DNA of 27,623 nt from Promethearchaeota archaeon (GTDB lineage: Archaea > Asgardarchaeota > Lokiarchaeia > Sigyniarchaeales > SOKP01): positions 1-27,623 of the forward strand of contig JBHLMQ010000040.1 of the NCBI GenBank assembly GCA_048938005.1, read 5' to 3'. This document shows, in pieces, positions 9,604 through 15,072 of this stretch (the first letter of the stretch is position 1; each line of letters begins with the position of its first letter). The position numbers and the translations under genes are program-made. The notes under the pieces were generated by a model that was given only the letters and a program-made list of their open reading frames with translations, ran no database searches and was not told the origin of the DNA.

Positions 9604-10815
9604 TTATTTGCGTTTAGGTGGTTTTATCAAATATGCTAATATAGCTGCTCCTACGGACATAACTCCCATTACAATAAATAGTATTAAATAACTCCCAAAT
9701 GCTAAAACTAATAGATTAACGCCTACAGCACCAATAAAACCAGCAATTCCATACGCCGTAAACACCATTCCATAATTAGGACCCAGATTTTTTGTACCGA
9801 ATAAGTCAGCAGTTGCTGTGGGGAATAAGCTGAAATTCCCTCCAAAGCAGAAATAGATTGCACATGTCATTATTAAAAAGTAAATCTCATTAACATTTGT
9901 TGTAAAGTAGATAACTAAAAGGATTGCTTGGGTAGAAAACATTAATAGCATTGCCTTTTTGTAAGATATTAAATCAGATAACTTTCCCCATACTATTCTT
10001 CCTAAACCATTGAATAATGCTGCCAAACTTCCAATTAATACAAAATCAACAATTATATATGTTTTTATGAAGGCTGCGTAAGATCCTATCACCATTAATC
10101 CTGATATTGCACTTAAAACAAAAGCCGCCCAAAGCATCCAAAATTGTGGTAATTTCAATGTTTGTTTCCGTTCAAACTCAAGTCCAGAAATTCCACTTTT
10201 TTCAGAAGGAGCAGGAGGGTCCCAACCTTTAGGCTTCCAACCTTCTGGGGGATTACTTAGTGTCATTGCACCTCCAATAATGAGAAATAGGTAAATTTCT
10301 CCTAAAACAATGAACATTATTGGAATATTAAAGGAAATAACGAGTGCTCTTATCACATAATTGAATACAAATGAACCAGCACCAAATCCAGCAACAGCAA
10401 TACCGTTAATAAATCCTTTTTTATCTGGAAACCATTTACTTGCGGAAGCTATAGGGCATACATACCCAAATCCTATTCCCATTCCAAAAATAATACCATA
10501 AGTGATTAGTAATCCAATAAAAGTAGTCATAAATGAGGATAAAATAACACCTCCACCCATTAACACTCCTCCCAGAATGGCAATATTTCTTGGGCCATAT
10601 TTTTGCTGTAATTGCCCCGCAAAAATCATTGTTATTGCAAAAGATAATAATCCAACCCCAAACACAAATACAGTTAATTCCTCGATTTCATGCACATAAG
10701 GGCTTACAAAAATAGTAAGTGTCCCCCATGAATATATTGTTCCTAATGCTAGTTGAATTAATATAGCTCCGATGACAACAATCCAACGGTTTCTAACTTT
10801 TTGTTCCTCAGACAC
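9604..10815 (-). CDS. MFS transporter, OFA (oxalate/formate antiporter, monocarboxylate) family
   Basis: NRW...ALGTIYSW, KWFPDKKG...GFGAG, FNGLGRIVWGKLSD and FGTKNLGPNYG motifs; about 12 TM helices. Confidence 0.9.
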   Translation of the reverse strand: MSEEQKVRNRWIVVIGAILIQLALGTIYSWGTLTIFVSPYVHEIEELTVFVFGVGLLSFAITMIFAGQLQQKYGPRNIAILGGVLMGGGVILSSFMTTFIGLLITYGIIFGMGIGFGYVCPIASASKWFPDKKGFINGIAVAGFGAGSFVFNYVIRALVISFNIPIMFIVLGEIYLFLIIGGAMTLSNPPEGWKPKGWDPPAPSEKSGISGLEFERKQTLKLPQFWMLWAAFVLSAISGLMVIGSYAAFIKTYIIVDFVLIGSLAALFNGLGRIVWGKLSDLISYKKAMLLMFSTQAILLVIYFTTNVNEIYFLIMTCAIYFCFGGNFSLFPTATADLFGTKNLGPNYGMVFTAYGIAGFIGAVGVNLLVLAFGSYLILFIVMGVMSVGAAILAYLIKPPKRK

Positions 10816-11021: not shown

Positions 11022-12026
11022 ATGAGGTTTATTTCAGGTTTAAAAAGTCTATCAAAAAAGACAATTTTACTAATTATCATTATCCTTTTTGTCGTTTCTT
11101 GGTTTTTTTTCGTATTTGGGTTTGATGTATTTTCAAATATCACATTCAGTAGATATTTTTTATATTTTCTTGCTATTTTAGCGGGATTTACATTTATGTT
11201 ATTTATAATTTCATTTTTTAGACCTTTGGAAAAAATGGGTATAGTTCTTATAGTTACAGCAGCAGTTTTAACATTACCTATTATGTGGGTTTTTAGTTTG
11301 ATAATTGGTTTTAGTATCTTTTTTTCATTCTCTATTTTAGCAAATGCTATAATAACAGCATTTTTTGCTTTTAAATTTTGTATGGATACATCTATAAAAG
11401 TTGATGATTTCTTTTATAAAAAGGAGAGTTCTAGAATATTCACAAGAATAATAGAATTTGTTACTTTTTTTCTACTTAGCTTGTTGTTTACATTATTATT
11501 AATAAGATTTTTTGGATTTAAAAATATTTCAAATGCCTTCTTTAATCTGTTTTTAATAGGATTAATATTAATCGGAATTGTGTTAATAAGGATAATTTTT
11601 ACAAAAAAATTAGCTGCCTATATTACTCTTTTTAACTTAATGACTTCATTTTATCTTCTTTATCTTGTTATAGATCTCTTATCAGAATTTATTTTCTTTG
11701 ATGATTCAGGTTATGATATTTTTGCATTTTGTATTGATTTAGCCTTGTTTGTATATATCATTGGCTCAATTTATGATAGAGTTGACTATATACAGGAGAA
11801 GCTTAAAATATTTAGAGTTGATACAATAGCCTTATTTGTTATTTTAATGAAATTATTGGTTCAGATTATGGGGATTTTCCAAGAATTATATATACCTTAT
11901 TTCCCCTTAGCAGTATTGCAGCGAATAATAATTGAGGTACAGATTTTATGGTTTTTCTTTGTAATTTTTACACTTATAGTTGGAATTTATACTATTTTTA
12001 AACATAAAGAAGGGAAGAGCTCTTGA
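11022..12026 (+). CDS. Hypothetical polytopic membrane protein
   Basis: 334-aa ORF with about 10 hydrophobic helices; no recognised motif. Confidence 0.8.
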   Translation: MRFISGLKSLSKKTILLIIIILFVVSWFFFVFGFDVFSNITFSRYFLYFLAILAGFTFMLFIISFFRPLEKMGIVLIVTAAVLTLPIMWVFSLIIGFSIFFSFSILANAIITAFFAFKFCMDTSIKVDDFFYKKESSRIFTRIIEFVTFFLLSLLFTLLLIRFFGFKNISNAFFNLFLIGLILIGIVLIRIIFTKKLAAYITLFNLMTSFYLLYLVIDLLSEFIFFDDSGYDIFAFCIDLALFVYIIGSIYDRVDYIQEKLKIFRVDTIALFVILMKLLVQIMGIFQELYIPYFPLAVLQRIIIEVQILWFFFVIFTLIVGIYTIFKHKEGKSS

Positions 12027-12140
12027 AATCATATATATAGAATATTATGAATATTTTTAAAAATAATTAAAAAGTTTATTTCTGATTTTATCGTTACTTT
12101 ATATTAATCAAAATAAATATCATTAAGGAAAAAGAGAAAT

Positions 12141-12278
12141 ATGAATGAAACTGAATTAAGAAAACGAAATATAAAAGGATTAATCATAATTTTCTCTGTA
12201 GTGGCATTGATTGTAGCGATAACTATTATTAGTGTAGTATTTTTTGGTCCTACTGGAGGTACAGGATGAGGTGGTTAA
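12141..12278 (+). CDS. Small single-pass membrane protein, candidate selenoprotein (45 aa with Sec43; 42 aa if TGA is the stop)
   Basis: MNETELRKRNIKGLIIIFSVVALIVAITIISVVFFGPTGGTG-[TGA 12267-69]-GG-TAA; SECIS-like hairpin downstream. Confidence 0.6.
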
Positions 12279-12360
12279 ACTCCGATAAAAGCCAATATGT
12301 CAGTTGTTTTTAGGAAAATATCTCGAAATTGAATAAATATAAGATAATATAAATACTGAA

Positions 12361-12403
12361 TGGAATGATTCTTGCGAAAAAATTTTAGTGGCAGGAGGAC
12401 CGA
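12361..12403 (+). promoter_or_regulatory. Putative eukaryote-like (Lokiarchaeal type) SECIS element
   Basis: ATGA (12365-68) T TCTTGC - GAAAAAA-led loop - GCAGGA G GA (12398-99): AUGA/GA core, 6-7 bp upper stem and apical adenosines, in the 3' UTR of an ORF with an in-frame TGA. Confidence 0.55.
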
Positions 12404-12542
12404 CCTTGCAATGGTTTCGGTATAGAAAAGTATAATATTAAGAAAATCCCATTAATTATTTATTTTTTATTTTTTGAAATTAAATTAGTATTTTCTAATT
12501 ATAATAAAAAATTTTAAAAAAATTAGCAAGTTTAGGATTAAT

Positions 12543-12695
12543 ATGTCAGATGTGAAACTAATAGTAAATGAAAAAAAAATCCCTTTAAAAGATTTTATGC
12601 AGGAAATGCTAACAAATATAATTCTAGGTTATCTAAAATCTACAAAGGGGATACCGGAAACAATTGAAAACATTAGAATTGAAATTAATCTGTAA
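12543..12695 (+). CDS. Small protein (50 aa) resembling the stand-alone C-terminal domain of archaeal MobB
   Basis: MSDVKLIVNEKKIPLKDFMQEMLTNIILGYLKSTKGIPETIENIRIEINL; fits the recalled V.L.VN...IPL..F......I.G....LKG.....I.I.I pattern. Confidence 0.7.
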   Translation: MSDVKLIVNEKKIPLKDFMQEMLTNIILGYLKSTKGIPETIENIRIEINL

Positions 12696-12762: not shown

Positions 12763-14073
12763 TTAAAGTTCTTGTATTGCTTTTTCTTTAGCAATCCGTT
12801 CTTCTTCGGTTAATTCTACCTCGCCTCTTCTGACTAAGTACATAAATACCAAAGCAGCGAGGAAGAAAAAATAGCTAACTAAAAATAAGGTGTAATTACC
12901 GAGTAAGTCTGTTAATGAACCAACCATAAATGGTCCTAATATTGCTGCCATAAAGCTGAAGAAATAGTATACTCCTGTATAAGTTCCGATTTTTTTGCTT
13001 GTAGGAGCCATTTGCCATACTATTACTATCGAATTGATGTTAATAAATGCCCAACCAACACCTGCAATAAATAGAATTATAGAAATCACCATAACTGTTT
13101 GGATTAAAAAACCAATAATTAGGGCACTCATGAAAATCAATAATCCAATTTTTATTGTTAATCTCCTACCTAGTTTTGAGCCTAAAATCCCTGCTGGAAG
13201 TGCTGAGATAAGAAAAGCAATTGCTACATACGTTAACATGAAGCCGGCATCCCCTCGTTCTAACCCTAAAACATCCGTCCCATAAACTGTATAAAGCGCT
13301 TCTAATGCTTGATATCCTACGAACCATGAAAAAATTGCTAATAACATATATAATGTGGATTTGTCTTTTTCTGATAGAATATCCTTAAAACTTTCAATTA
13401 AATTAGGTCTATCCTTTTTATCCTTAACTTTTTGCCCTTCTACTTCCTCCTTTTCTAAAATTAGTTTATAACTGTAAGATTCTTTCTCTTTTATTGTCAA
13501 TAGTAATACAACTAGAGACAAAACCATAATTATTGCAACTGCTAAAAATGCAAGGAATAAACTAATCGGCACAAGGTACCTATTGAATATATAAGCGATT
13601 AAGGCCCCAACTCCACCCATGAAGTTAATAACGGCATTTCCTTTACTTCTATTTACTGGTTTTACAAAATCTGGCATAAGTGCTACTGCTTGTGATCTAT
13701 AAGATGCCATACTCACATTAAAAAAGAACATCCATAGAAGTAATAACCACAAAGGATCTGAAGATGGATTTATTGTAGAGATCATAACAAAAAATATAGC
13801 TGCTAGAGGGATCCCGGCAACTAGATAGGGCATGCGTCGACCAAGTCTTGTTCGAGTATTATCTGATACAGTACCCATAATGGGTTGGATACAAACCCCA
13901 ATAACGTTATCCATTGCCATCCATGCTCCTACAAGTGCATAAGAACCCAGATACTCAAATAATGTGATATTAACTTGAGTATTGAACATTGACCAAGCAA
14001 TACCTGTTGTAAAGAATGCCAATCCAATTAAAGTAGTTTGCTTTATATTAAATTTATCTGTAGTTTCTGACAT
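12763..14073 (-). CDS. MFS transporter, GPH/SLC45-like sugar:cation symporter
   Basis: QPIMGTVSDNTRTRLGRRMPY, ALMPD...RSKGNAVINFMG and GTYTGVYYFFS; about 12 TM helices. Confidence 0.9.
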   Translation of the reverse strand: MSETTDKFNIKQTTLIGLAFFTTGIAWSMFNTQVNITLFEYLGSYALVGAWMAMDNVIGVCIQPIMGTVSDNTRTRLGRRMPYLVAGIPLAAIFFVMISTINPSSDPLWLLLLWMFFFNVSMASYRSQAVALMPDFVKPVNRSKGNAVINFMGGVGALIAYIFNRYLVPISLFLAFLAVAIIMVLSLVVLLLTIKEKESYSYKLILEKEEVEGQKVKDKKDRPNLIESFKDILSEKDKSTLYMLLAIFSWFVGYQALEALYTVYGTDVLGLERGDAGFMLTYVAIAFLISALPAGILGSKLGRRLTIKIGLLIFMSALIIGFLIQTVMVISIILFIAGVGWAFININSIVIVWQMAPTSKKIGTYTGVYYFFSFMAAILGPFMVGSLTDLLGNYTLFLVSYFFFLAALVFMYLVRRGEVELTEEERIAKEKAIQEL

Positions 14074-14187: not shown

Positions 14188-15072
14188 ATGAAACTAGAGC
14201 CAGAATGTATTGGATGTCTTTTTAATCAAGTGTTAAAAGCATTTGAATTACTACGACCGAATATATCTCGTGAAATTGTAATAATTGCTCAAAAAAGACT
14301 TATGAAATTCCTAATAAATTTTGATATAAATGAAAATGCACCTCCAACTCTAGGAAAAGTTACATACAATATTATCGCAGAACTTCTGGAGGATGAAGAT
14401 CCTTATCATGATCTTAAAATTGAATATAACAGTCTTGTAATGAAATATTCTAATGAAATTATGAAAATAATTGAAGAAGCAGAAGATCCTTTATTTAAGG
14501 CAATATTAGCTTCAGCACTTGGAAATACGATTGATTTTGCTACCCAACATGATATTGACATTGGAACTGACCTTAAAAATTTTTCAATTGAAAAATTGGC
14601 TATTAATGATTATAAAGAATTCAAAAAATCACTTGATAATACCCACCACTTGTTAATAATAGGTGATAATGCCGGAGAGATAGTTTTTGATAAAATGCTA
14701 GTCATGATTATCAAAAAGTATTACCCCAATTTAGAAATTTTTTATTCTGTAAGATCTGCTCCTATCATCAATGATGCCACTATTGAAGATGCTAAGTTTA
14801 TTAGTTTAACGGATTTGGTTCCGGTTATTGAGTCAAATCCAGCTCCAGGAATAATTATTTCTGATGCATCAGAAGTATTTAGAGAACATTTTTTTAAGAG
14901 GAAAGGGGTGATTTTATCTAAAGGACAGGGTAACTTTGAAAGTCTTTATCATATGAAAATCCCCGAAAAAGACGTTTATTATTTACTAAAAGTAAAATGT
15001 AATTTGATGGAACGAATATTTGGAGTTAAAATTGGAGATTTAATTTTTAAAAAAGAGAGTCACGAATTTTAA
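14188..15072 (+). CDS. DUF89/ARMT1-like damage-control phosphatase
   Basis: ECIGC, DPY..LK...N, GNTIDF, DNAGEIVFD, PIINDAT, KGQGNFESL and KC motifs. Confidence 0.92.
   Translation: MKLEPECIGCLFNQVLKAFELLRPNISREIVIIAQKRLMKFLINFDINENAPPTLGKVTYNIIAELLEDEDPYHDLKIEYNSLVMKYSNEIMKIIEEAEDPLFKAILASALGNTIDFATQHDIDIGTDLKNFSIEKLAINDYKEFKKSLDNTHHLLIIGDNAGEIVFDKMLVMIIKKYYPNLEIFYSVRSAPIINDATIEDAKFISLTDLVPVIESNPAPGIIISDASEVFREHFFKRKGVILSKGQGNFESLYHMKIPEKDVYYLLKVKCNLMERIFGVKIGDLIFKKESHEF

Follow-up and report, generated by a model that had tools for sequence, protein, structure and literature searches.

A candidate Lokiarchaeota-type SECIS element behind a small UGA-containing membrane protein gene in an Asgard archaeon

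The window analysed here is a 27,623-nt stretch of DNA from a Promethearchaeota archaeon of the class Lokiarchaeia (contig JBHLMQ010000040.1, assembly GCA_048938005.1; 27.6 kb with 29% G+C, in a genome of 3.7 Mb). In it, a small open reading frame (ORF) with an in-frame UGA is followed by a hairpin, and the locus raises the question of whether this hairpin acts as a selenocysteine insertion sequence (SECIS) element and the UGA is read as selenocysteine (Sec), as had been proposed in a preliminary description made from the letters of the DNA. Our answer, held with a probability of about 0.85, is that positions 12353-12428 form a working Lokiarchaeota-type (eukaryote-like, type I) SECIS, which would make the UGA at 12267-12269 a Sec codon in a small membrane protein. 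This reading is carried by three observations: the homology of the element to known SECIS elements, its co-occurrence with the UGA across genomes and the presence of the Sec machinery in the genome. The GC-richer island at 12361-12420 was confirmed, with letters identical to those first described (the element has 39% G+C vs 29% in the window), as was the spacing of about 95 nt between the UGA at 12267-12269 and the AUGA at 12365-12368, which is 95 nt. The coding part of the locus comprises two features:

12141-12278, + strand: small ORF of 45 codons, MNETELRKRNIKG, with a 22-residue hydrophobic helix and the ending GPTGGTG-U-GG; the TAA stop is at 12276-12278. Up to the UGA the translation is MNETELRKRNIKGLIIIFSVVALIVAITIISVVFFGPTGGTG, followed by UGA-GG-TAA
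12267-12269, + strand: in-frame UGA, candidate Sec residue 43; an invariant column in alignment A5 of the family, with the TGA conserved in homologues

The homology of the element was assessed with a covariance model, R1, built from 20 SECIS elements located behind known HdrA and VhuD genes of the same genome and 14 congeners (alignment A4). The elements of the small ORFs were kept out of the training set. The structure given to R1 has two helices, one lower and one upper, with a side hairpin of two pairs, and it was supplied by hand because the lower helix of A4 is out of register between two subtypes; RNAalifold recovered only eight upper-helix pairs from this alignment. In A4, 90% of the cells are paired and none of 500 shuffles reaches the covariation score. 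Two divergent elements of the genome (C21 and C17, misaligned by MAFFT on 85-nt stretches) and an element with a 10-nt loop (L022) were left out of the training and served as held-out controls.

On R1, the window element (12353-12428, + strand) reached 73.2 bits with an expectation value (E) of 1.8e-15, filters off, and the runner-up in the window reached 13.3 bits. This score falls within the range of the known elements, which extends from 61.8 to 90.1 bits in the training copies and from 67.9 to 78.1 bits in two held-out VhuD copies. The preliminary description had called for such a model and had taken a background-level score as the outcome that would contradict it; the score obtained is far above that level. 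The scan of the whole genome with R1 gave seven matches at E <= 1, with the window element in third place:

C12, 90.1 bits: behind HdrA-VhuD, used for training
C49, 78.1 bits: behind VhuD, held out of training
C73, 73.2 bits: the window element, behind the small membrane ORF
C80, 72.3 bits: behind a second small membrane ORF
C18, 72.0 bits: behind HdrA-VhuD, used for training
C78, 61.8 bits: behind HdrA, used for training
C17, 37.1 bits: behind an ORF containing UU, held out

The held-out controls, scored with filters off, gave 78.1 bits for C49, 67.9 bits for the VhuD element with the 10-nt loop, 42.8 bits for C17 and 11.1 bits for the VhuD element of C21, and no match to R1 was found in the two SelD genes of the genome. 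Judged by its score, the window element clearly belongs to the subtype that R1 describes. A separate scan of the genome with the strict geometry of the published Lokiarchaeota SECIS (lokiSECIS) yielded 52 matches, seven of which have an A-rich loop ending in AG. Four of these seven lie behind multi-Sec HdrA or HdrA-VhuD genes, one behind the UU ORF and two behind small UGA-containing membrane ORFs.

Two further observations concern the known elements themselves. The SECIS behind one HdrA-VhuD pair (C21:9832, L028) has the loop AAAAAAAUGAG and lacks the side hairpin; since it scores only 11.1 bits on R1, the type I elements of this one genome fall into two or more subtypes, to which the SelD type is added. 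In ten VhuD genes of congeners (L031-L039 and L043), the frame ends ...E-UGA within the AUGA of the SECIS, with a stop-to-SECIS distance of -13. The SECIS core of these ten genes doubles as their stop codon, as the terminal UGA sits inside the AUGA.

Regarding its fold, the window element is assigned the following parts:

12356-12360, + strand: predicted lower helix, 5' strand CUGAA, partner of 12416-12420
12365-12368, + strand: core AUGA, presumed 5' side of a kink-turn, invariant in the 20 training elements
12369-12377, + strand: upper helix, 5' strand UUCUUGCGA, in which 8 of 9 positions pair with 12389-12397
12378-12388, + strand: apical loop of 11 nt, AAAAAUUUUAG, with A at bases 1-5 and AG as the last two
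12389-12397, + strand: upper helix, 3' strand UGGCAGGAG, partner of 12369-12377
12398-12399, + strand: core GA, 3' side, fitting the lokiSECIS pattern
12403-12415, + strand: side hairpin (third arm) ACC-UUGCAAU-GGU, with its CC/GG pairs kept in 95.9% of alignment cells
12416-12420, + strand: predicted lower helix, 3' strand UUCGG, partner of 12356-12360

The AUGA, the stem formed by UUCUUGC (12369-12375) and GCAGGAG (12391-12397), and the GA core are present as first described. The upper helix of 6-7 bp with a 15-nt loop was misjudged, given that the register shared with the relatives has nine positions and an 11-nt loop; eight of the nine are paired in the window copy, two of them as G.U, with a G.G at position 8. 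The second hairpin seen in the preliminary description stands in part: its small arm at 12403-12415 is retained, and its base (12399-12403/12417-12421) is given up, being paired in only 55.7% of cells. The supposed 3' strand of that hairpin pairs with 12356-12360 (88.7% vs 55.7% of cells), so that the original assignment of the lower helix was wrong.

The revised fold is supported by covariation in the alignment of relatives (A6). Among 49 distinct relatives, double-sided changes are found in seven of the nine upper-helix pairs and in all five pairs of the lower helix (12356-12360/12416-12420), which reads, for example, CCGAA/UUCGG, CUGAA/UUCAG or CCAAA/UUUGG. The two upper-helix positions adjacent to the core are often unpaired (in 26 and 16 of the 49), which fits a non-canonical core region, and nearly all relatives (n = 50) have A/GUGA on the 5' side of the core. 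Over the whole structure, 90.1% of cells are paired and double changes occur in 12 of 16 pairs; none of 500 shuffles reaches the score, and controls with the structure slid along the alignment have 37-50% of cells paired. The loop of the side hairpin keeps its YGCA motif in the relatives as well as behind VhuD genes and, like the CC/GG pairs, this motif is nearly invariant. The covariation of the lower helix and the short side arm left over together indicate a three-armed RNA, in which an AUGA/GA internal loop separates the lower helix from the upper one with its A-rich loop, and a side hairpin lies on the 3' side. The core is presumed to adopt a kink-turn, by analogy with the published elements (PMC4989117). 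At the DNA level, comparison with 40 relatives gave 72-93% identity for the SECIS part in many congeners, and matches to the ORF part in few.

The second line of evidence is the association of the element with the UGA. Of the 53 loci examined, 50 have a SECIS on R1 at E <= 0.01, and all 50 are among the 51 that carry the TGA. The remaining TGA-bearing locus, in which the frame ends GGGG-U-C-stop, has only a weak match of 18.1 bits, and the two TGA-less loci have no SECIS. UGA and SECIS, on these counts, travel together. The ORF and SECIS recur as a pair across one taxonomic family, and the TGA hardly ever varies; this is evidence for Sec decoding that does not depend on the window copy. Together with the R1 score, it supports the SECIS-based decoding of the upstream ORF that had been proposed. 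For comparison, TGA ends 13% and TAA 74% of the long frames of the genome.

Furthermore, the frames of most relatives continue beyond the UGA. At least 20 further codons are open in 35 of 48 automatically picked ORFs, and the chance of such an opening is about 0.23 each, at a stop-triplet frequency of 0.071. In the genus of the window genome, 12 nt usually separate the end of the frame from the AUGA. Most relatives have 7-45 further residues after the Sec, commonly with a U-x-C motif (UGC, UPC or UAC, and the longer UTSC and UPSTC). Differences past the UGA fall on codon positions 1, 2 and 3 in the numbers 122, 63 and 134 (20 pairs of relatives, not independent of each other), and the second position changing least fits coding sequence. 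The distance from UGA to AUGA ranges from 42 to 119 nt in 48 relatives, with 95 nt in the window. The window gene is a short-tailed variant, ending U-G-G-stop and without the Cys partner. Short tails are also present in four other genomes (UG-stop, UG-stop, UPG-stop and CTUG-stop), and all of them keep both the TGA and the SECIS, with 26.5-71.4 bits.

The members of this family of small membrane ORFs follow a common plan: a short basic N-terminus behind the start Met leads into about 22 hydrophobic residues, and a Gly-rich stretch then precedes the TGA. Only two columns of A5 (16 members) are invariant, those of the start Met and of the Sec; although the proteins share no more than 27-84% identity, the TGA is kept throughout. 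Since Sec is the only invariant residue besides the start Met, the conservation pattern marks the selenol as the likely working part of the small protein. Searched with a profile made from A5, 47 of the 54 genomes of the genus have a match at E <= 0.01. In the class, the profile matches 63 of 161 genomes at E <= 1e-4, and these belong to a single taxonomic family; no match was found in the 26 genomes of the six other families of the class. The family is spread over 43 of 53 genomes of its own genus, 16 of 42 of a second genus and one genome each in three more genera. The TGA is present in 66 of 69 among the matches listed in the class search, and the three matches without it are one helix-only sequence and two poly-Gly homologues ending in TAA. 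Two genomes of a sister genus (L100 and L101) encode a version with one membrane helix, the stretch GGLGGGGGGG (nine Gly in ten) and the end ...TIFG-TAA; lacking TGA, Cys and SECIS alike, these homologues constitute a selenium-free branch of the family.

Searches of Pfam and NCBIfam placed the small ORF in no family, with only sub-threshold membrane-helix noise in Pfam-A at E <= 1. Its public annotation is a 42-aa hypothetical protein ending at the TGA. Other public forms of the family are hypothetical proteins of 39-52 aa cut at the UGA, or longer ones with Trp in its place: among the 14 of 41 public hits viewed, nine are long forms with W at the Sec site and five are short ones that stop before it.

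Related or similar ORFs were also observed in the same genome and in congeners. A paralogue of 78 codons, C80:577-816 (-), reads ...SYEAEPT-U-PSTC... and matches the profile with E 3.8e-16 (L076/L030); its SECIS (497-571, 72.3 bits) lies 20 nt past the stop. The ORF at C17:134470-134973 (+) contains two adjacent in-frame UGA codons (...VVHAD-U-U-ADV..., L054 1001-1501), has no Pfam match at E <= 1 and is followed, 8 nt past its stop, by a lokiSECIS at 134970-135036 (37.1-42.8 bits); its product may be either a further unlisted selenoprotein or PrxL, which is already published. Two congeners have a one-helix ORF of a third kind (L040 550-849 (+) and L047 177-467 (-)), with an Asp/Gly-rich linker and the sequence ...GDCDLPI-U.... 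These two ORFs run into a 56-bit SECIS whose AUGA provides the in-frame UGA.

The third line of evidence is the Sec machinery. The genome has a tRNA-Sec (61.7 bits, also called by ARAGORN) with the gene for SepSecS adjoining it (382 bits), two tandem SelD genes (C86:1934-4019 (-)) with one in-frame TGA each, and an EFsec-like factor that scores 231.9 bits, just below the bacterial SelB cut-off of 242, on a contig shared with Sec-machinery gene(s). In the mechanism that we propose, the SECIS in the 3' untranslated region (UTR) of the 12141-12278 mRNA would fold into its lower helix, AUGA/GA core, upper helix and side hairpin. Together with tRNA-Sec, SepSecS, SelD and the EFsec-like factor, it would lead the ribosome to read the UGA at 12267-12269 as Sec and not as a stop. 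The product, 45 residues long, would have a single membrane helix and a Gly-rich tail ending -G-U-G-G, and this tail would put the selenol at the membrane surface.

Several points weigh against this interpretation. The window SECIS lies 86 nt past the stop, vs 1-20 nt in the known genes of the genome, and a T5 run (12307-12311) is located between the two. The window copy has only two codons past the UGA, so that its open frame is uninformative, and its upper helix carries the G.G mismatch at position 8. Folding of 12340-12440 gives a minimum free energy (MFE) of -16.3 kcal/mol with z = -0.90, and 32 of 200 shuffles are as stable. The Rfam model of the eukaryotic SECIS (RF00031) has no match in 12100-12560 at E <= 10, and none anywhere in the window at the gathering score. 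No homologue with Cys at the Sec position was found in the profile searches of the genus and class or among the public proteins (14 of 41). Moreover, the genomes are related, and the counts overstate their independence; the figure of 88.7% for the lower helix is favoured by the fitting of A6 to R1; and R1 covers one SECIS subtype only, since it misses the C21 element (one of four held-out type I elements) and those of SelD. As for other Rfam families, no match to the element was found in the window at the gathering threshold, and the search of 12100-12560 at E <= 10 returned only chance-level matches to SpF36, a CRISPR repeat and a snoRNA.

Among the alternatives, the one that survives best is that the element is a true SECIS homologue that has become a relic. 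The window UGA would then mostly or always terminate translation, the protein would end ...GGTG and the element would be decaying from a longer ancestor. The two-codon tail, the G.G mismatch and the T5 run between the ORF and the SECIS agree with this, as does the stretch between the two, which does not resemble the coding tails found in the long forms: the DNA matches of the relatives cover the 5' part of the ORF or the SECIS, except for the near-identical G019 copy and one full-span match of 67% identity (G006). However, the window SECIS scores as high as the copies of working genes, and the short-tailed copies of the four other genomes keep the TGA with a SECIS of 26.5-71.4 bits. No short-tailed copy was seen in which the TGA has become TAA, though TAA is the stop of 74% of the long frames. 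A relic is, in our view, unlikely.

Less probable still is a kink-turn element with some other role, such as L7Ae binding for the stability or regulation of the mRNA, with the UGA being an ordinary stop. AUGA/GA cores are generic kink-turn features, which speaks for this idea. It is opposed by the location of an element with the same loop and side hairpin behind HdrA and VhuD, whose UGAs align to catalytic Cys/Sec, by its presence in 50 of the 51 TGA loci and absence from the two TGA-less ones, and by the frames of the relatives, which continue beyond the UGA.

There is hardly any case for a SECIS that serves the membrane-protein gene upstream of the small ORF. This gene stops at a TGA (12024-12026) in the window, and its frame goes on for 27 codons with one further UGA. 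However, the window is the only locus with this stop: across 22 loci the gene ends in TAA (19), TAG (2) or TGA (1), so that 21 of the 22 have another stop codon, and the extension is not conserved. Moreover, about 340 nt and another gene would separate the membrane-protein gene from its SECIS. Finally, a chance hairpin in an AT-rich spacer, as the folding energy no better than that of shuffles and the lack of an Rfam match might suggest, is ruled out by the R1 score (73.2 bits, with E 1.8e-15 on a model that never saw the element), by the covariation in 49 relatives that supports the fold and by the 72-93% identity in congeners between unconserved flanks.

With 12353-12428 taken as the SECIS of the small ORF, two neighbouring features complete the immediate locus:

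11022-12026, + strand: gene for a polytopic membrane protein of 334 aa, directly upstream, with an orthologue in the same position in 22 of 31 loci
12463-12475, + strand: two T6 runs about 45 nt past the SECIS, a candidate archaeal transcription stop as judged from the letters

In several relatives, a T run directly follows the 3' strand of the SECIS lower helix. Bacterial promoter and terminator models gave 7 promoter-like matches vs 6.7 expected and no terminators in the window, a result that is uninformative for an archaeon.

The upstream 334-aa protein has 55 invariant columns among 20 orthologues, with one Cys kept in 90% of them. No family was found for it above the curated cut-offs of Pfam and NCBIfam (DUF3087 gives 19.7 bits vs a cut-off of 23.4), and the Atlas has nothing above 0.9 for it, with structural matches at template modelling (TM) scores <= 0.35. 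Farther out, the small ORF is flanked by genes for two transporters of the major facilitator superfamily (MFS) and an ARMT1-like damage-control phosphatase (9604-10815 (-), 12763-14073 (-) and 14188-15072 (+)); in 14 of 31 loci an MFS gene lies downstream, and its strand varies. A 50-codon ORF at 12543-12695 (+) is similar to MobB/FeS-domain proteins over their C-terminal 45 residues (NF011062, with E 7e-6 and a score far below the cut-off).

According to the positive-inside rule, the basic N-terminus of the small protein is probably cytoplasmic, which would leave the Sec tail on the outer face of the membrane. Its layout and synteny suggest that it is possibly a subunit or partner of the upstream 334-aa membrane protein. 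As to function, a membrane-anchored selenol for redox reactions or for the handling of chalcogens or metals would be a guess from the same two features.

If the UGA is decoded as proposed, a widespread membrane micro-protein would be added to the selenoproteome of Lokiarchaeia. A family with neither a Cys form nor known relatives is invisible to homology searches, and gene callers cut its members at the UGA; this locus shows that such genes can be recovered by searching for the SECIS first. In addition, the three-armed element is shared with VhuD genes and its YGCA side loop is conserved, which makes it an RNA target for finding the archaeal SECIS-binding factor. The text of PMC4989117 knows of no SBP2 in Lokiarchaeota.

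Among known selenoproteins, those closest in layout to the small protein are SelK and SelS. In both, a single membrane helix at the N-terminus is combined with a Gly-rich segment, and Sec is among the last three residues, with the tails GGUGR in SelK and GGUG in SelS. The window protein likewise has a single N-terminal helix, a Gly-rich tail and its candidate Sec in the last three residues, and ends in GUGG. It differs in its length (45 residues vs roughly 90-190) and in having no Pro-rich linker, and most of its relatives continue for 7-45 residues after the Sec, with U-x-C. No sequence match to SelK or SelS was found in all of Pfam-A at E <= 1, and the resemblance is one of layout only. That the family is nevertheless an archaeal counterpart of SelK and SelS, in which a single-pass protein joins the upstream membrane protein as a subunit and contributes a selenol, its only functional group, from a flexible Gly-rich tail, is improbable. 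If true, it would mean that membrane-anchored tail selenoproteins, and not the SECIS alone, predate eukaryotes, and it would contradict the text of PMC11227280, according to which Asgard archaea have no eukaryote-type selenoprotein family.

Regarding the known Asgard selenoproteome, the published texts describe seven families, all found through homology to known selenoproteins (PMC11227280, PMC13188914), and the SECIS-first search of Mariotti et al. reported HdrA, VhuD, VhuU and PrxL only (PMC4989117). The small-ORF family is outside the seven families in the texts of PMC11227280 and of the 2026 review PMC13188914. A search of the literature, article texts only, likewise found no earlier description of it.

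Concerning the RNA, the eukaryotic SECIS (RF00031) has in common with the window element the AUGA/GA core, unpaired apical A's, a two-helix layout and the location in the 3' UTR (PMC4989117), and differs from it in the longer upper helix and in an Rfam model that finds no match here at E <= 10. The lokiSECIS is much closer. It is described as an AUGA, a 9-bp stem, an 11-nt loop and GA (or AA) after the stem, with the first five bases of the loop mostly A and the last base G, usually preceded by A (PMC4989117). Such elements, also named Asgard type I eSECIS-like, have been reported for HdrA-VhuD, VhuU and PrxL genes (Mariotti et al. 2016, PMC4989117; Huang et al. 2024, PMC11227280). The window element has the AUGA, the 9+11+9 register, the loop AAAAA...AG, the GA and the location in the 3' UTR. 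It differs in lying 86 nt past the stop (not 1-20 nt) and in its one G.G mismatch; moreover, the published texts speak of a stem-loop and its core and make no mention of a third arm (PMC4989117, PMC11227280). The window element and the VhuD SECIS elements of the same genus have sequence in common, the lower helix and the ACC-YGCA-GGU side hairpin included. On the letters of the RNA, with every defining feature that was compared being present, the element is assigned to the published lokiSECIS or type I eSECIS-like class. An RNA of known class is here paired with a protein family that is absent from the selenoprotein lists in the texts of these papers.

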